A stretch of 25,873 nucleotides of DNA, from the NCBI GenBank assembly GCA_024648655.1, contig JAGGDZ010000423.1:1-25873 (forward strand). The letters run 5' to 3'. The translations under genes were made by a program, and so were the position numbers. The notes below the pieces were generated by a model. It was not told the DNA's origin, ran no database searches, and saw nothing but the letters and a program-made list of their open reading frames with translations. Below, piece after piece: positions 8,224 through 21,439 of this stretch. The DNA comes from Chloroflexota bacterium. GTDB taxonomy: Bacteria > Chloroflexota > Dehalococcoidia > Lucifugimonadales > JADFKI01. Every line of letters begins with the position of its first letter. The first letter of the stretch is position 1.

Positions 8224-8407
8224 TTCCACTGCGCCGCGAACCGCCAACGGTTTTCTATAGACAAACCATCGTTAGATTTCGTAGAGCTACGAGCTATCCA
8301 ATAAAGCCTCAGTGCGTTATATTCATAGCATAGCCACAGACACCTCGACGGGCTTAGACTGATAACCGTGAAGCATCAAAGCGGCACTTAGATTGCGCAG
8401 GTTTTGT

Positions 8408-9757
8408 ATGACACTTCAATTCGGACGGGTTACGCTTCTATATTTTATCGTAGTATTCGCGGTAGCGCTCATATCTTGCACGGGGGCGCCGGCGGCTCCA
8501 ACAAGCCAGAATGATGCTCTCTCCATAACTAATGGCGTCGCCGACACGGAGAGTATGCCGGCAGTTAATGCTTCTTGGCAGGTGCCGCCCGACATCGATT
8601 ACTCCAGGCAGAATCTTGCCAATTCCGGCCCTAATCCAAATGCCGAGCTGTCCTTTCCTTCTTCTTCCGAAATCAACGCAGACGAAATAGTGGCGGCTTA
8701 CGAGAGTGTCATAGGCGATGTCCACGAGAATGTTCTGCCTTCGGTCGTAAGCATCTTCGTGCTCAACCGTGCCCAAGTTTCGGGCTCGATTCCGGGTTTC
8801 ATTTACCCATTTCCATTCGGGCAGAGGGCACCACAAGGCGGCGAATCTCAACAGGAATTCTACTACAGAAATGGGCAAGGCTCAGGTTTCGTATGGGACA
8901 CACAAGGGCACATAGTCACAAACCACCACGTGGTAGTCGATGCAGAACGAATAAATGTTCAATTCTCGGACGGTAGCGCTTATGCAGCAGAAGTAGTAGG
9001 GTTGGACCAAGATTCGGACTTGGCAGTAATTAAAGTCGAAAGGAATCCCGAAGAGCTTACGCCGGTAACTCTGGGTGATAGCAACGAGATACGAGTGGGG
9101 CAGCTCGCAATCACAATTGGTAATCCGTTCGGCCAGGAGTTCACGACCACGACCGGTATCGTAAGTGCCATCGGGCGGACGATCCGTGCCGGCGACTCTC
9201 ACTTTTCATTGCCTAAAGTAATTCAGACGGATGCTCCCATGAATCCCGGGAACTCCGGCGGCCCACTGCTCGACCGACAGGGACAAGTTATCGGGGTTGA
9301 CGCTCAGATTATCACGCGCTCCGGCTCCAATACCGGGATCGGATTCGCCATACCCGTCAACATCGCAAAGCAAGTCGTTCCCGCCCTCATAAGCAAAGGC
9401 TCGTTCACATACTCATGGTTAGGGATTCAAGGCACTAGAATAACACCTGAGGTCGTGGACTTGATGCGCGCTCCGAAGGGCACACGCGGCGCGCAAGTAA
9501 TTGCGGTCTCAGAGAATGGACCGGCTCATGTTGGCGGCTTGATAGGAAGCACTAAAGCCAAGCGGACGTCGCGAGGCAACATCAGGTACGGCGGCGACGT
9601 AATAACGGCAATTGACGGCAAGCCAGTACTTGGAATGACCGACCTGATCGTTTACCTTCTGGAGAATACGAGGCCAGGTGACACTGTGGCGATGAAAGTT
9701 GTGCGAGAAGGAGGAGAAATCGCGGAAATCAAGGTGACTCTGGATGCCCGTCCGTAG
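8408..9757 (+). CDS. htrA: HtrA/DegP-family serine protease with one PDZ domain, probable lipoprotein
   Basis: Catalytic triad contexts TNHHVV, DSDLAVI and GNSGGPL; C-terminal PDZ (GDVITAIDG); signal peptide ending in LISC. The start could instead be TTG 8393. Confidence 0.9.
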   Translation: MTLQFGRVTLLYFIVVFAVALISCTGAPAAPTSQNDALSITNGVADTESMPAVNASWQVPPDIDYSRQNLANSGPNPNAELSFPSSSEINADEIVAAYESVIGDVHENVLPSVVSIFVLNRAQVSGSIPGFIYPFPFGQRAPQGGESQQEFYYRNGQGSGFVWDTQGHIVTNHHVVVDAERINVQFSDGSAYAAEVVGLDQDSDLAVIKVERNPEELTPVTLGDSNEIRVGQLAITIGNPFGQEFTTTTGIVSAIGRTIRAGDSHFSLPKVIQTDAPMNPGNSGGPLLDRQGQVIGVDAQIITRSGSNTGIGFAIPVNIAKQVVPALISKGSFTYSWLGIQGTRITPEVVDLMRAPKGTRGAQVIAVSENGPAHVGGLIGSTKAKRTSRGNIRYGGDVITAIDGKPVLGMTDLIVYLLENTRPGDTVAMKVVREGGEIAEIKVTLDARP

Positions 9758-9801: not shown

Positions 9802-9873
9802 TTGCGCTACTTCCGCAGCAACGACAAAGCCTATGGTAAGTGATGCGATCTGATAGTGTTATGGTATGCAACA

Positions 9874-10443
9874 ATGAAGACAGCAATAATACTAACTCTG
9901 CTACTCGGACTCGCTGCTGCATTAGCGGCGCAAATTGGCTGTGGAACCGCCCCAGCCGCACAAGCCGATAAGACCGCATCGGTGGCTCGGGCTGAAAAGG
10001 AGGTAGGCTACAAGAAAGGGATGCACATTCCGGAATTCGGGATGAGCTTGCTTGACGGCACAAGGGTTACTTCGGCAAAGCTCGTTGAAGAAGGCAAGCC
10101 GACTTTCATCTATTTCCACGCCACCTGGTGAGGAACCTGCCGCGTCGAGTTGCGGCGCATCAAGGAAGAGATTGGTAGCAGATACAATGACCGGGTAACC
10201 TTTTACATAGTTGGCACCGATCCATCCGAGAGCATCGACATACTCGAAGCGGATAGAAAACGCGAAGGATTACCTTGGCTCACCGCTTACGCGGATGAAG
10301 GCATGTTGGAGAAACTGCAAATCTACACTCAACCATCGAAGGTGGCGCTCAGCGGAAATGGAATAATCACCCACCGATACGGATTCGGCAAAGGAGACTT
10401 CGAGAGTTGGAGCGACCTTTTCGATGACATCGGCGCCAATTAG
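9874..10443 (+). CDS. TlpA/thioredoxin-like redoxin, probable selenoprotein (U86xxC89), exported and possibly lipid-anchored
   Basis: ORFs 9856-10131 and 10150-10443 are in the same frame, separated only by TGA 10129-10131. Read-through gives KPTFIYFHATW-U-GTCRVELRRIKEE...FYIVGTDPSE...QPSKVALSGNG, a continuous thioredoxin fold with TGA at the first Cys of CxxC. Hydrophobic N-terminus ending in QIGC. Confidence 0.88.
10151..10159 (+). promoter_or_regulatory. Candidate SECIS apical hairpin (UGC-GGC-GCA) after the redoxin UGA
   Basis: TGCGGCGCA lies at +20 to +28 from the UGA. It extends to GA(GU bulge)UGC-GGC-GCA-UC (10147-10161). A competing stem GCCGC/GCGGC (10139-10156) is also possible. 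Confidence 0.55.
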
Positions 10444-10547: not shown

Positions 10548-12008
10548 TTACGCCCCCTCCTTGCCCTGGTACACAATGGTGTCAGGCTTGAACACCGCCC
10601 AAGCAAACCAGAAATGACTGCCATGCACAACGGGAGTAAGGCTCTTGCCGGTAAGGGGACCTTCAACCGCGTTGCCTAGAATATCCCAGGTGCTCTCTGT
10701 CTGCTCATCTACAATTTTCCCGTCATTCACACTGAAAGACAGCTTCTGATCGTCAAGATGAGAGTCGAACACCCCCGCGGCGCCGACATCACGAGACTCG
10801 GCAATTGAGCTTCCGTCTAGCGCCGATGTCGTACCGAACTTGTGGAAAACAACGATACTGCGTTCTCCTAAATCATAGTTGATCGCTCCCTCGTCCTGCA
10901 GAATCGTCAATGGGAATGCCACATCCACATCGCCCAAGGTTACGGCTATGACGCGCTCGACAGGGAGTAGTCTTCCGTCGAGATCGCCTCTGAACAGGAA
11001 CGGATTACCATCCGCTGTGTCATAGCCGGCATAAGGATTGCGGCCGTACTGCCGGGCGTATCCGGTGTCTCGCGACAACACCTTACCTTGAGGATGCGCC
11101 TCTGCAAAGTCCGCGAACGACACGATCGATGCGGGCAGATGTTCCAATGTTCTCCCGGCATACTTCCCCACAATCCCCTCTCCTGTAAACTGCTGCCACC
11201 AGGAATGCGACTGACGATCGTACATAATCAGATCGGAGTTGCGAAGATTTCCTGATACTCCAAATTCGAGCAAGTCGCCATCCAAGCGCCTGTCAAAAGC
11301 GATCGCCGAATTGCACAGCGGGCAGAACGTAACTGCGATTGGCACATCGCCGACGTCGTCGTTGACTATCTCGTGCCATGTGAGAATCTGAAGTGGATAG
11401 GCTCGGGAATCGCCATTGACTTGCAGGGCGACCACCGGCTCGACATCCTTGAGCCACACCGATGCTTCGGACGGCGCAATGAATTTCGGCTCGTCGATCG
11501 ACGGGATATTGTCGCGCGGAATCACGAACTTTATCTGGCTATAGGGCACAGTATGCAATCGAAAGTCAGTATCCCATCCGCTAGTGCTGAGTCGCGCGGC
11601 ACTCAACGCCCTCTCATAGTCTGGATCAGGCTCTATCCCGTTTTCCCCGTCACCATTTGCTTCCAGCGTAGAGGTGGCAATAGGCGTTTCGACTGCAATG
11701 GAATTGGTGTCCGTCGGCATCTTTGCCAGCACAGTGGTCGCCACTTCCGCAGGAGTCGGAATGTCTGTTGACATAGATGGTTTCCCTGCGCCTGGAACGG
11801 GTGTAGGCGATACGGACGATGCAGTAGGAGGAATGCCGGACGACTGTATTGCTGTGGACTTTGGCGCCCTGTTCTGTTCCTGCACGACATACGGTTCCTC
11901 CGACGTGCTGCCGCACGCTCCCAGTAATCCTGCAACGAGAAGTAACGCGATAATCGACAAGGTAACCAACTTTGTAGTTGTAAGTCTGTTCCGCAAATGA
12001 TTCTCCAT
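10548..12008 (-). CDS. DUF3179-domain lipoprotein with a Pro/Thr/Ser-rich linker
   Basis: Lipobox LLGAC, low-complexity linker, then DNIPSIDEPKF, AYPLQILTWHEIVND, TFCPLCNSA, FGVSGNLRNSDLIMYDRQSHSWWQQFTG, HFWFAWAVFKP. Confidence 0.88.
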   Translation of the reverse strand: MENHLRNRLTTTKLVTLSIIALLLVAGLLGACGSTSEEPYVVQEQNRAPKSTAIQSSGIPPTASSVSPTPVPGAGKPSMSTDIPTPAEVATTVLAKMPTDTNSIAVETPIATSTLEANGDGENGIEPDPDYERALSAARLSTSGWDTDFRLHTVPYSQIKFVIPRDNIPSIDEPKFIAPSEASVWLKDVEPVVALQVNGDSRAYPLQILTWHEIVNDDVGDVPIAVTFCPLCNSAIAFDRRLDGDLLEFGVSGNLRNSDLIMYDRQSHSWWQQFTGEGIVGKYAGRTLEHLPASIVSFADFAEAHPQGKVLSRDTGYARQYGRNPYAGYDTADGNPFLFRGDLDGRLLPVERVIAVTLGDVDVAFPLTILQDEGAINYDLGERSIVVFHKFGTTSALDGSSIAESRDVGAAGVFDSHLDDQKLSFSVNDGKIVDEQTESTWDILGNAVEGPLTGKSLTPVVHGSHFWFAWAVFKPDTIVYQGKEGA

Positions 12009-16646: not shown

Positions 16647-16726
16647 CTCTCTCTTGCAACGGTGAGTCTGGTATAGTGTGAAATAGAGAAGAGTTCTGGA
16701 ATCGTGAGAACGATGAGGTGGCAGAA

Positions 16727-17572
16727 ATGACGACTCACGGATACACCAACCCCGACATTCTGGTTGAAGGAGACTGGTTAGAGGAAGTAATTGACGATTC
16801 CAATATACGCATTGTCGATTGCGACCCTTACGACGCCTATGGGCGCGCTCATATCAGAAATGCCATAGGGATCCCGGTTCACCATTACATCAAGGAGCCT
16901 GGCTACGACGACTCCCCCCGTGGCTATCCGCTAGTTGCTCCGCCCGACACGATGAAGGAAGTAATGGAGCGTATGGGCATCGGCGACGACAATCTCGTAG
17001 TTGCCTATGACAGCAACGGCGCTCTCTGGTCAACACGACTGTGGTGGGTGCTCAACTATTACGGACACACGAATGTGAAAGTGCTCAACGGCGGCTGGAA
17101 GAAGTGGTATGACGAGGGCCGGCCAACGTCAATAGACATTCCGACCCCCGAAGACGTCACATTTACACCTAAAGCGGACTCCAGCCTTGTATGCACATTA
17201 GGCTATGGAGTGTCCAATGTCGGCAATGAAGATGTGGTCTTCCTTGACGTACGCTCTGACGGCGAGTGGGACGGCAGCAACTCACGGGGCAATACCCGAT
17301 CCGGGCGCATACCGGGCGCGGTTCATCTGGAATGGCTAAACTTCATAACCGACGACAAACATCAGACCATCAAGTCCGCCGATGAACTCCGGGCGATGCT
17401 CGAAGAAGTTGGGGCAACTCCTGACAAGGAAATCGTAACTTATTGACAGGGTGGTATCCGTGCGGCGCACGGAGTTTTCGTACTGAAGCTGCTCGGCTAT
17501 GAGCGCGCGCGAAACTATGATGGGTCAATGGGAGAGTGGGCAAACCGCGAAGATACACCTCTCATTGCATAA
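16727..17572 (+). CDS. Tandem-domain rhodanese/sulfurtransferase (SseA/CysA-like), probable selenoprotein (U240)
   Basis: The ORF track stops at TGA 17444-17446. The frame continues as IVTY-U-QGGIRAAHGVFVLKLLGYERARNYDGSMGEWANREDTPLIA* to TAA 17570-17572, supplying the active-site loop and the C-terminal YDGS.xEW signature. ATG 16727 has a GAGGT RBS. Confidence 0.92.
17457..17473 (+). promoter_or_regulatory. Candidate SECIS hairpin after the sulfurtransferase UGA
   Basis: Perfect 7-bp stem UCCGUGC/GCACGGA with a GGC loop, starting at +11 from the UGA. It contains TGCGGCGCA (17461-17469). Confidence 0.7.
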
Positions 17573-17648: not shown

Positions 17649-17695
17649 CTGCTCAATTAGCGCAAACCTTGCTTAGCAAATTCCCGGACTTTCCG

Positions 17696-20600
17696 ATGAC
17701 CAAAGCATCTACCGAGACATTCCTGACTGCGGACTGCACCGCTGAAATCGAACGCATCCTTGAAGAGCGAGTTATGGTACTGGACGGCGCCTGGGGCGTG
17801 ATGCTTCAACGCATGCCGTTATCCGAGGAGGATTACAGAGGCAACCTCTTCGCCGACCATCAACACGACATCAAAGGCTGCATAGACGTACTTTGCCTTA
17901 CGAGGCCGGACATCGTACTAGACGTCCAGCGGCAGTACCTGGATGCCGGTGCAGACATCTTGACGACCAACACTTTCACGGCGACGCAGTTCGGATTGTC
18001 CGAGTTTGGCATTGAAAGCTACGCCTATGAAATAAATCGCGCAGCTGCGAAGTTGGCTAGAATAACCGCCGATGAATACACAGAGCGTCAGCCGGAAAAA
18101 CCAAGGTTCGTTGCAGGCAGCATAGGTCCGACCAATAAGACGCTGTCGCTTTCGCCTGACGTTAACGACCCTGGGTATCGGGACGTAAGTTTTGATGAGT
18201 TGGTTGATGCTTATTCGGATGCTGCGCGTGGTCTTCTTTCAGGAGGCGTTCACATCCTGCTTGTGGAAACAGTCTTCGACACTCTCAATGCGAAGGCGGC
18301 GCTCTATGCCATTGATGCCGTCTTCGAAGAGATTGGCACCCGAGTTCCGGTGATGGTCTCTTTCACTGCCGTTGATTTGAGTGGACGCAACCTTTCCGGA
18401 CAGACCGCAGAAGCATTCTGTGCCTCCGTGTCTCACATTCCTTTGTTAAGCGTCGGTATCAACTGCTCCCTGGGCAGCGACCAGATTAGACCCTTCCTCG
18501 CATCCATTGCCGGCACCGCAACTCAGTTCGTTTCTTGCCATCCTAACGCAGGCCTCCCGGACGAATTCGGAGAATACAACGAGTCCTCCGCGCACATGTC
18601 CGCAAACTTGCGAGAGTTCGCAAAGAGTGGGCTTGCGAATATAGTAGGAAGTTGCTGCGGTTCGACACCGGGGCATACGAAGGCGATAGCCGATGCCGTG
18701 GAAGGTATTATCCCGCGCCAGCGTCTAGCAGCAGGTGCAAACACCGTCCTCAGTGGGCTTGAGGCTCTCGAATTACGTCCGGATTCCAATTTCACAAACA
18801 TCGGCGAACGAGCCAACGTTACCGGCTCCGCGCGATTCAGGCGACTCATACGTCGTGGCAAATATGAAGAAGCCATATCCGTAGCTCGTGAGCAGGTAGA
18901 AAATGGCGCGCAGATTCTCGACATCAACATGGACGAAGGCCTCTTGGACTCCGAAGCCGCAATGGAGCGCTACCTCAAGTTGATTGCTGGCGAACCCGAT
19001 ATTTCGCGGCTGCCTATCATGATTGACAGTTCCAGATTCGGAGTCATTGAAGCTGGCTTGAAGTGCCTTCAGGGAAAAGGAATAGTCAACTCTATCTCGC
19101 TCAAGGAAGGCAAGGACGAGTTCGTCAGGCAGGCGCGCATCGTGAAACGATATGGCGCGGCAGTTGTCGTGATGGCATTCGATGAGGAAGGACAAGCGGA
19201 CACGCTGCAACGCAAAATCTCCATTTGCACACGCTCGTATAACATCCTCACGGAGGATGTTGGATTCCCTCCTCAAGACATTATTTTTGACCCCAATATC
19301 TTTGCCATTGCCACCGGAATTGAGGAACACAGCGACTACGCTGTGGCATTCATCGAAGCGACTAGAGAATTGAAGCGTCTGTTCCCGCTGTGTCATGTAA
19401 GCGGTGGCGTAAGCAATGTATCCTTCTCATTTAGGGGAAATGAACGAGTCAGAGAAGCGCTCCATTCGGTCTTCCTGTATCACGCAATTCAAGCAGGCAT
19501 GGACATGGGGATAGTGAATGCCGGTCAATTGGCAGTCTATGACGATGTAGATGATGACCTGCTCACAGCGTCGGAGGATGTAATACTCAACAGGAGGGCT
19601 GATGCTACGGACCGACTGCTAACGCTGGCTGAAAGCGTTGAAAAGGGCGGGCGCAGTAATGTTCAAGGAAACTCATCGGAGGATAGCGGAAAGTGGCGCA
19701 CCCTCTCCGTTGAGGAGCGAATCCGTCACGCTCTGGTCGCCGGAATCGACTCGCACATCGAGAGTGATGTCGAAGAAGCGCGCTTGAAGTCGGACCGTGC
19801 GCTCGAAGTCATCGAAGGGCCTCTGATGGAAGGAATGAACACGGTAGGCGACCTGTTCGGATCTGGACGGATGTTTTTGCCACAGGTGGTCAAGAGCGCT
19901 CGCGTTATGAAAAAGGCTGTAGCGGTACTTGTTCCACATATAGACGCAGAGAATGAGAACGGTGAACTCTTCCGGTCCAATGGCAAGATTGTCATCGCCA
20001 CCGTCAAGGGAGACGTTCACGACATCGGCAAGAACATCGTTGGTGTGGTTCTTGGCTGCAATAACTATGAAGTAATTGATTTGGGTGTAATGACACCCTT
20101 CCAGCAAATTCTTGATGTCGCAAAGGACGCGAACGCGGATGTCATCGGTTTGAGCGGACTGATAACACCGTCGTTGGATGAGATGATCACAGTCGCCAGC
20201 GAAATGTCCCGCCAGGGATTCGACATTCCCCTGCTCATAGGAGGGGCTGCTACTTCTCCGGCGCATACAGCCGTCAGAATCGCGCCCGAATATCAACATG
20301 GCGTCATACATGTAAGAGACGCATCGCGCTCGGTGACGACCATGAACGCCTTAGTTGGCGAAGACACAAGCCGAGAGTTCATAGCACAGACTAAAGAACG
20401 CTATGACAAGGTGCGTGCCGACCGAGCTTCACGCGATGCTCAGGCTCAACTGCTTTCATTGAGTGACGCGCGTTTGCGGCAACAGAATTTTGACTGGCAA
20501 TCCACAGTTGAGCCTCCTCCGACGTTCACTGGGCTAAAGGTGTTGGAAGACTACCCGCTAACCGAGCTAAGAGATTACATCAGCTGGACACCGTTCTTCG

Positions 20601-21439
20601 GCGCCTGGGAGCTACGCGGGGCGTATCCGGCAATTTTCCAAAGCCCAATCTATGGTGAACAAGCTAAAAGCCTCTTCAACGATGCTCAGTCTCTTTTGCA
20701 AGAAATGATTGATCGCAAAGTCCTGGAGGCGAGAGCAGTAATAGGCTTCTTTCCCGCAAATTCAGTTGGCGACGATGTTGAGCTATACGGAGACGATAGG
20801 CGAAACGAGACTGTAGCCACTTTCCATTTCTTGCGGCAGCAGTGGGACAAGTCGCGTCAGCGGGCCAATTTGCCGGTGGAAGACTATTGCCTTGCGGACT
20901 TTATCGCGCCAAAGGAGTCCGGCATTGCAGACTACATCGGCGCATTTGTAGTTACTGCGGGAATCGGTTCCGAAGAATATGCAGCTTCTTTAGAAGCCAA
21001 GAACGACGACTACAATGCCATAATGTCCAGGGCTATCGCCGACAGGTTGGCAGAGGCATTCAGCGAGCGACTGCACGAGCGCGTTCGGAAAGAGTTCTGG
21101 GGATACGCGCCGCACGAAAACTTCGACAGTTACAGTCTGTTGAAGGAAGAATATCGGGGTATTAGACCGGCCTTCGGATATCCGGCATGTCCGGACCACA
21201 CCGAGAACGAGACACTCTGGAAGCTTCTCGACGCCGAAAATCTCATTGGAACGCGGCTCACGGAGAATTACGCTATCTTGCCTACGGCGTCAACGGCAGG
21301 ATTATACTTTTCGCACCCGGGATCTCGCTATTTCGGAGTAGGACGCATTGGTCGCGACCAGATAGAGAACTATGCTCTCAGAAAGGGAATGTCAGTCTCA
21401 GAGATTTCACGCTGGCTGTCTCCTAACATTGTGAATTGA
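17696..21439 (+). CDS. metH: Cobalamin-dependent methionine synthase
   Basis: [37 protein letters not shown] (DxHxxG B12-binding motif), [14 protein letters not shown] 17696 preferred to TTG 17669. Confidence 0.97.

Follow-up and report, generated by a model that had tools for sequence, protein, structure and literature searches.

A putative exported TlpA-like selenoprotein interrupted by an in-frame TGA in a Chloroflexota genome

Does the TGA in the middle of a short stretch of Chloroflexota DNA separate two small genes, or does it encode selenocysteine (Sec) within a single one? The question is raised by positions 9874-10443 (forward strand) of the window analysed here, a stretch of 25,873 nucleotides (contig JAGGDZ010000423.1 of assembly GCA_024648655.1) that belongs to a bacterium of the order Lucifugimonadales, the genome of which is a metagenome-assembled genome (MAG) of 2.83 Mb in 533 contigs, 95.5% complete and with an estimated contamination of 6.4%. 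An earlier note, made from the letters of the sequence, had proposed that two annotated open reading frames (ORFs) found here are one gene, cut at the codon of the attacking residue of a thioredoxin-type active site, and that the product is a selenol oxidoreductase working outside the cytoplasm. We reach much the same view and consider, with a probability of about 85%, that the locus is one gene encoding a Sec-containing exported thiol-disulfide oxidoreductase of the TlpA/ResA/CcmG type. Support comes from the column that the TGA occupies among relatives, the Sec machinery of the genome, the predicted fold and the export signal, among other lines.

One frame and one TGA column

The region 9874-10443 holds a single frame running from an ATG to a TAG stop, with 189 codons before the TAG and exactly one internal stop, the TGA at 10129-10131 (codon 86). 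Within the surrounding peptide, KPTFIYFHATW-U-GTCRVELRR, column alignment and the structural model place this codon at the N-terminal (attacking) position of a U-G-T-C redox motif (Sec86), and the TGC at 10138-10140 encodes Cys89, the resolving cysteine of the UxxC, which is invariant in the family alignment. We have therefore annotated the whole region, on the grounds of frame, domain matches, homologues and fold, as a complete gene for a putative UxxC thioredoxin-fold (TlpA/CcmG-like) selenoprotein and lipoprotein. Translation with genetic code table 11 breaks it into an ORF of 91 aa (9856-10131) and another of 97 aa (10150-10443), the latter beginning at a TTG 19 nt past the TGA. The statement that the downstream half has no start of its own is a reasonable one (the TTG is the only candidate and no GGAGG-like sequence was seen before it), and the argument developed below is independent of this point. 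A scan of the locus for promoters and terminators gave nothing above shuffled sequences.

That gene callers split genes of this kind, as had been expected, is borne out by the public data. The calls for a closed genome of the same genus list one product of 123 aa and another of 97 aa, and neither has a Pfam match. In a collection of 5.8 billion proteins all 43 matches are unnamed and 107-154 aa long, and cover at most 45% of the query, that is, they are truncated halves. Along the same lines, a search of 1.84 billion representative proteins recovered many fragments with their last residue exactly at position 85 of the query or their first at about 97-100, because gene callers stop at the TGA.

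A six-frame search of 41 related genomes identified homologues in 38 of them, often as two or three paralogues per genome, and 49 of these sequences have an in-frame TGA. Their identity to the window copy ranges from about 88% down to about 29% over the domain, and in every one of the 49 the TGA is the first residue of a U-x-x-C motif (UGTC, UGSC, UPTC, URSC or UPxC) at the column of U86. Judged from the alignment, conservation of a TGA at a single column to this extent is far more than would be expected by chance, and it confirms, together with the frame itself, that the two ORFs are one frame with a single TGA at the position of the attacking Cys. Closed genomes of the same genus also encode an orthologue, and in a phylum-wide sample the family is rare (5 of 251 genomes), with the TGA present in five of the six matches. 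The more distant relatives have a Cys instead: full-length metagenomic proteins in the set of 1.84 billion, with 38-43% identity and the same lipoprotein and linker architecture, read ATW-C-P-x-C-R-x-E-L at the U86 column and provide the Sec/Cys pair. A nucleotide pattern search of genome contigs with a Cys codon at this place returned only unrelated CxxC thioredoxins from other phyla.

The family shows some variety in copy number. Members of the genus usually have two Sec-form copies, one of the UGTC type adjoining an htrA gene and another of the UPTC type located elsewhere; in the genome to which the window belongs, the only trace of the UPTC paralogue was a fragment of 29 residues on contig C326. 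Some relatives at the level of the order have at least three Sec-form paralogues, two of them in adjacent tandem (G030:C1:138990-140441 and 69740-70177 in our numbering of genomes and contigs; three places on G032:C4). A metagenomic protein of 274 aa (P0002) contains a complete Cys-form domain (ATWCPICRAEL), a proline-rich linker and a second copy that stops at ..FFAATW, which suggests a two-domain fusion of a Cys form and a Sec form cut at the TGA.

The part of the frame that follows the TGA evolves like the part that precedes it. The ratio of nonsynonymous to synonymous substitution rates (dN/dS; Nei-Gojobori, against the three closest orthologues) was 0.11-0.16 over the 41 codons that precede the UGA and 0.10-0.16 over the 103 codons past it; selection is purifying on both sides of the UGA, which means that the downstream half is translated. 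The locus is also covered by Logan contigs that another study obtained from marine metagenomes. They show 9-10 differences each, all of them accounted for and none at 10129-10131, and the only two changes in the region of the redox motif and hairpin are synonymous (CAC to CAT and TTG to TTA). These independent contigs have TGA and neither TGC nor TGT, which excludes both an error of sequencing and a nonsense mutation private to one strain. Metagenomes with the locus are of sponge, marine or coral-reef origin. The alternative that the region is a nonsense pseudogene, or a pair of small independent genes as the annotation has it, would agree with the split by table 11, with the two products of the public calls and with the possible TTG start at 10150, but it is effectively refuted by the single TGA column of the 49 homologues, the low dN/dS past the TGA, the Cys that other homologues have at this column and the absence of a Pfam domain from either half when the joined protein forms a complete thioredoxin domain.

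Decoding of the UGA

The genome encodes selD (387 bits), selA (542 bits) and selB (340 bits), all above the curated cut-offs, and a tRNA-Sec (selC; 66 bits, with the anticodon tca according to ARAGORN), so that the whole set of genes for which the earlier note had advised a search is present. The selD gene (locus L001, G000:C349:860-1783, reverse strand) is itself of the Sec form (SCAG-U-ASKFSP); Sec synthesis thus depends on Sec, since selD is a selenoprotein gene. As for the genetic code, six of the window's 17 substantial ORFs end in TGA, a codon that is internal only in two candidate selenoprotein genes (the one discussed here and a rhodanese gene described at the end); being an ordinary stop in those six, TGA has not been reassigned. 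Seven independent lines, namely the machinery, the second gene of the window with an in-frame TGA, the use of TGA as a stop, the TGA column in relatives, the Cys in distant ones, the selection on both sides of the UGA and the independent contigs, all support the reading of codon 86 as Sec, and we infer that Sec is actually inserted there.

It could be argued that the UGA is decoded as something else, either through a reassigned code (UGA as Trp or Gly) or by near-cognate read-through to Trp or Cys. The inserted residue is not readable from open frames alone, and in other organisms Sec codons are known to receive the wrong amino acid when selenium is limiting. But reassignment is at odds with the use of TGA in the window described above, and six aligned family members overrun the shared C-terminus only when TGA is read through, from which it follows that those genes end in TGA. 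Besides, the U86 column aligns with the catalytic Cys of the CPxC homologues, and the genome has the full Sec machinery, including a Sec-type SelD, with a covarying hairpin at the distance of a Sec insertion sequence (SECIS). Decoding as a residue other than Sec is, in our opinion, highly improbable.

This hairpin lies at 10142-10158 (forward strand), with a 5' arm at 10142-10147 (GCGUCG), a loop at 10148-10152 (AGUUG) and a 3' arm at 10153-10158 (CGGCGC). It has six base pairs and begins 13 nt past the U of the UGA, its arms being nucleotides 14-19 and 25-30 counted from that U. The SECIS of Escherichia coli fdhF has G23/U24 in the apical loop and a minimal stem-loop 11 nt past the UGA. The geometry of the hairpin in the window fits a bacterial SECIS, and what is predicted here is likewise a stem-loop shortly past the UGA with G/GU in its apical loop. 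Among the 49 Sec forms the five-base loop is A-G-U-U-G/A, with an invariant GUU. An Rfam search gave no match to a SECIS family, only a tRNA.

The arms covary. In the ungapped alignment 87.7% of the cells are paired, versus 20-58% when the 3' partner is slid by one to three columns. Double (compensatory) changes occur in six of the six pairs, and none of 500 shuffles reached the observed covariation score. A telling case is the pair C18-G26, which became U-A in five distinct sequences by a synonymous third-position change in codon 91 and an Arg-to-Gln change in codon 94, a compensation that appears hard to explain at the protein level. In a subgroup of distant homologues (with RAELRTL instead of RAELRRM) the six pairs are kept by way of one bulged base in the 3' arm. 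With the register fixed, at least five of the six pairs form in 41 of the 49 Sec forms; the three Cys-form loci form two or three of the six, an anecdotal control in which two of the loci are near-identical.

A TlpA-like fold behind an export signal

With a Cys placed at position 86, the joined protein matches the Pfam family AhpC-TSA (PF00578) at 33.6 bits (cut-off 26), and Redoxin and Thioredoxin are above their cut-offs as well. The NCBIfam models of DsbE, ResA and StoA match weakly. Those for selenoprotein-specific redoxins (e.g. NF053656 redoxin_TUGYCR, NF047660 HUIPC and NF040730 SaoT) gave no match at E-values up to 0.01, and the sole selenoprotein-related match in NCBIfam is a weak one to deiodinase_rel (16.9 bits, cut-off 250).

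The AlphaFold2 model, built with a family alignment of 33 sequences, has a mean predicted local distance difference test (pLDDT) score of 87.5, with 93-98 for residues 41-189 and 51-56 for the predicted signal peptide and linker (residues 1-40). The model and Foldseek delimit a thioredoxin-fold domain at residues 45-189 (10006-10440), where U86 follows the strand 77-82 and stands just before the N-terminus of the first helix (87-100), the canonical position of a CxxC. When the PDB is searched with Foldseek, the best matches all turn out to be TlpA-like thiol-disulfide oxidoreductases that work outside the cytoplasm, among them ResA (4nmu, 1su9 and 1st9) with target-normalised template modelling (TM) scores of 0.79-0.84, CcmG (2b1k), Etrx2 and Etrx1 (4hqz, 2yp6 and 4hqs), MPT53 (1lu4), DsbF, SdbA and StoA. 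The sequence profile agrees, with E-values from 1e-22 to 1e-14 for TlpA-like chains. The claim that only the joined 189 aa complete a thioredoxin fold is thus upheld by a confident model of the ResA/CcmG/Etrx type, neither half having a domain by itself, and the modelled fold has the N-terminal extension and central insert of the TlpA type (cd02966).

The residues around the active site point in the same direction. Pairwise alignment with E. coli CcmG (2b1k) sets ATW(U)GTCRVE against ATWCPTCRAE, and Glu92 (GAG, 10147-10149), the third residue past Cys89, matches the Glu of WCPTCRAE and is conserved in at least 90% of the family. Pro153 (CCA, 10330-10332) falls at the column of the CcmG cis-proline Pro144 (P in 2b1k, A in the P144A mutant 2g0f). 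In sequence terms, the protein has the W-C-x-x-C site, the acidic residue and the cis-Pro, with a predicted Sec in place of the first Cys. Among the 33 aligned sequences M1, G45, G49, P53, F81, U86, C89 and G163 are invariant, and C23, E92, L93 and K156 are among the residues conserved at 90% or more. The Pro153 column is occupied by Ser, Ala or Gly in most of the family, in Sec and Cys forms alike, Pro being found in the window copy and its closest orthologues; two residues past this column there is a nearly invariant Lys (Q-S-[ST]-K-[IV]-A). The peroxiredoxin (Prx) motif PxxxTxxC/U is absent from FHATWUGTC, where the Thr precedes the U by two residues instead of three and the fourth residue before the Thr is not a Pro. 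By the rule of domain plus UxxC, rather than by comparison with the reference WP_010940744.1, the protein would be classed as a Prx-like thiol:disulfide oxidoreductase.

At the N-terminus, MKTAIILTLLLGLAAALAAQIG-C23-GTAPA, pattern inspection predicts a signal peptide (9874-9942) with a lipobox-like AQIGC that ends in Cys23 (TGT, 9940-9942). Between this presumed lipid anchor and the domain, pLDDT and the lengths of the orthologues delimit a short, low-confidence linker (9943-10005). The nearest orthologues have some 40 residues more in this linker, and in distant relatives it is even longer and rich in P/A/Q/T (the whole protein has 189 aa here against 228-285 aa in orthologues). The lipoboxes of the orthologues read [LIV][LIFV]-G-C-G-AAPA, LIAC-S or LAAC-G, and Cys23 is conserved in at least 90% of the 33 aligned sequences. 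This N-terminal pattern is that of an export signal with a membrane tether, and Cys23 is most likely lipidated. What had been proposed earlier, export with possible lipidation, holds for the signal peptide and the nearly invariant Cys23, but the lipobox of this copy is imperfect, with an atypical Q at -3. The host bacteria lack an outer membrane, and therefore the enzyme would face the environment directly.

The imperfect lipobox gives some room for a genuine selenoprotein that is not a lipoprotein and is either released by signal peptidase I (e.g. past ALA-A) or retained by an uncleaved signal anchor. The Q at -3 lies outside the usual [LVI][ASTVI][GAS]C pattern and is shared by the three nearest orthologues (AQIGC, VQIGC and VQVGC), and an AxA-like site (A-L-A) precedes the lipobox. 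But the family-wide conservation of Cys23 argues for lipidation, as does the fact that most orthologues have a good lipobox (LLGC, LFGC, LIAC or LAAC) and, past it, the kind of flexible tether, rich in P/A/T, that lipoproteins typically have. The products of both neighbouring genes also have lipobox-like N-termini (VALISC in the upstream HtrA and LLGAC in the downstream DUF3179 protein). A form without lipid is in our view quite unlikely, and we retain the lipoprotein.

Neighbouring genes, reaction and known systems

The gene is placed 116 nt downstream of one, on the same strand (8393-9757), for a serine protease of the HtrA/DegP type that has a single PDZ domain and the N-terminus of an exported protein (matches to Trypsin_2, PDZ and degP_htrA_DO). 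It is followed by a convergent gene (10548-12008, reverse strand) for a DUF3179 lipoprotein (PF11376, 350 bits) that has a CPLC motif which looks conserved (..VTFCPLCNS..) and a long linker of low complexity. The order htrA, selenoprotein gene and convergent DUF3179 gene is kept in the genus-level loci, down to 53% identity of the selenoprotein: htrA is present in all of those fetched and the DUF3179 gene in 17 of 18 (L026-L043, missing from L040). Parts of the same order reappear in three loci with shorter flanks (L057, L059 and L064). No ccdA, cytochrome c biogenesis or msr genes were found near the gene of the window, and the neighbourhoods of the Cys-form homologues, of the UPTC paralogue and of a distant triplet contain neither these (CcdA, Msr and cytochrome c biogenesis genes) nor htrA or DUF3179.

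The place between htrA and a CPLC-bearing DUF3179 gene suggests that the enzyme may serve to maintain the redox state of envelope proteins in an oxic habitat, be it the sea or a sponge, with the DUF3179 protein as a possible redox partner or substrate. Going by synteny, the selenoprotein may take part with HtrA in envelope protein quality control, possibly acting on the DUF3179 protein. A more specific proposal is that htrA, the Sec-redoxin and DUF3179 form a lineage-specific envelope module of three lipoproteins, in which the selenoprotein is either the dedicated partner of the DUF3179 CPLC or a surface selenol peroxidase. We find this unlikely; if it were true, the replacement of the cis-Pro by Ser or Ala and the invariant Lys of most members would mark a mechanism unlike that of ResA, CcmG and TlpA.

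For the exported TlpA-like oxidoreductase that we favour, the steps can be sketched as follows. SelB carrying Sec-tRNA(Sec) would be recruited by the hairpin 13 nt past UGA-86 and Sec would be inserted, the binding of SelB being a presumption; the N-terminal signal peptide would then direct export, with its processing likewise presumed, and a lipidated Cys23 would anchor the thioredoxin domain on the outside of the cytoplasmic membrane. There, by analogy, the selenolate of U86 would attack a disulfide (or a sulfenic acid or selenenylsulfide) of an exported client, and the mixed Se-S species so formed would be resolved by Cys89. This would leave an intramolecular Se-S bond, which could be re-reduced by a membrane shuttle of the CcdA/DsbD type fed by cytoplasmic thioredoxin, as in ResA, CcmG and Etrx, on which the presumed reductase direction, the electron donor and the substrate are modelled. 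Sec in place of Cys might speed up exchange and protect the enzyme from being irreversibly over-oxidised in oxic seawater. The sole candidate for the shuttle is a polytopic membrane protein of 302 aa with FNPC and LSC motifs (L099, 598-1506, reverse strand; G000:C284), encoded once per genome in 18 of the 22 genomes of the genus, which may be a divergent CcdA-type thiol-disulfide transporter.

The exported selenoprotein could have a different chemistry, as a surface peroxidase, a sulfenic-acid reductase (with Prx- or GPx-like use of Sec), an oxidase or an isomerase. AhpC-TSA is the best Pfam match, many members have A, S or G instead of the cis-proline with the nearly invariant Lys155 beside that column, genes for CcdA or cytochrome c biogenesis were not found in linkage with it, and the habitat is oxic seawater or sponge. 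Against this, the active site is a W-U-x-x-C of the Trx type with a CcmG-like Glu and not the PxxxTxxC of Prx, the structures nearest to it belong to reductases of the ResA/CcmG/Etrx group, and the window copy retains the proline. Such a chemistry is conceivable, although it seems to us rather improbable, and we prefer a thiol-disulfide oxidoreductase of the TlpA type.

Several observations weigh against this preferred interpretation. The CcdA-like candidate scores only 19-25 bits against PF02683 (DsbD_TM; cut-off 27.1) and is unlinked to the selenoprotein gene. The sel genes are on other contigs of a MAG with the contamination given above. A search of sequencing runs found the locus in no RNA run. 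The lipobox of the window copy has the atypical Q. As to the hairpin, about eight homologues need its bulged variant, its energy in single sequences is no better than that of shuffles (z of -0.7 to -1.7), and RNAalifold keeps three of the six pairs, the innermost ones. Its loop and stem encode the conserved peptide CRxELRR and plain nucleotide conservation is confounded, which is why the argument for the hairpin rests on covariation.

UxxC thioredoxin-fold and TlpA-like selenoproteins have had a place in catalogues since 2004-2005, with entries for the Sargasso Sea in 2005 (PMC1088965), in the Global Ocean Sampling (GOS) in 2008 (PMC2398784) and in Table 1 of a study of 2026 (PMC13188914); the GOS classes include Prx-like 1-3 and Trx-like 1-3 (PMC2398784). 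The rule applied in such classifications is a domain plus a Sec motif, e.g. PF00578 plus UxxC (PMC9312934), and by this rule the window protein falls in the known UxxC Prx-like/Trx-like classes. It shares with the catalogued marine proteins the thioredoxin fold, Sec as the first residue of UxxC, the AhpC-TSA/Redoxin matches, the marine origin, the existence of Cys homologues and the G in the SECIS apical loop, a likeness set by features and not by alignment with the reference sequences of those families. The marine catalogues consulted do not discuss signal peptides or an htrA/DUF3179 context, and 'periplasm' appears in them only for selenite reduction. That marine microbes have selenoproteins of these kinds is a concept which comparative genomics established in 2004-2008, and the gene described here is an unannotated member (a subfamily) of an already catalogued selenoprotein type.

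The nearest characterized relatives by structure are thiol enzymes. ResA of Bacillus subtilis and B. anthracis (1su9, 4nmu), CcmG/DsbE of E. coli (2b1k) and the TlpA-type reductases have the same fold (target-normalised TM 0.69-0.84) and are, as predicted for the window protein, extracytoplasmic and membrane-tethered; CcmG has in addition the ATWCxTCRxE motif and the cis-Pro column. The window protein differs from them in having Sec for the attacking Cys and a predicted lipid anchor instead of their transmembrane helix, in the lack of cytochrome c biogenesis or ccdA genes near its gene and in the many family members without the cis-Pro. Another parallel is provided by Etrx1 and Etrx2 of Streptococcus pneumoniae (4hqs, 4hqz and 2yp6), which are lipoprotein-anchored thioredoxin-fold reductases on the outward side of the membrane in a bacterium that has no outer membrane. 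The Etrx proteins protect surface proteins from oxidation and work with CcdA and MsrAB2. They are CxxC proteins, whereas the window protein is UxxC, has no linked Msr or CcdA and is only 17-18% identical.

To our knowledge, selenoproteins exported by the general secretory pathway of bacteria have been predicted but not demonstrated, and for this reason a biochemical test would be of some value. Among the predicted ones are SaoB and SaoC of the SAO system, extracytoplasmic selenoproteins with signal or lipoprotein signal peptides (bioRxiv 10.1101/2022.07.06.499078). Like the window protein, they would be exposed to the extracellular milieu and are split by gene callers, but they have unrelated folds (a substrate-binding protein and a CC-COOH protein) and a CU motif, and occur in anaerobic Firmicutes with a proposed function in metal handling. 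The whole family studied here, which is conserved throughout an order of marine and sponge-associated bacteria, is systematically mis-annotated, and all the public gene calls inspected give it as two unnamed fragments. A correct annotation would add an extracytoplasmic selenoenzyme to the redox repertoire of these bacteria and would give an example of a covariation-supported SECIS inside a strongly conserved peptide motif.

The window contains a second candidate selenoprotein gene (16718-17572, forward strand), identified by an in-frame TGA at 17444-17446; its product is a rhodanese of two domains, the active-site loop of which reads Y-U-QGGIR. A GC-rich hairpin of 7 bp is located at nucleotides 14-30 past its UGA, with the same spacing as in the redoxin gene. 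Directly 3' of the rhodanese gene there is an ORF of 1256 aa (17669-21439, forward strand).

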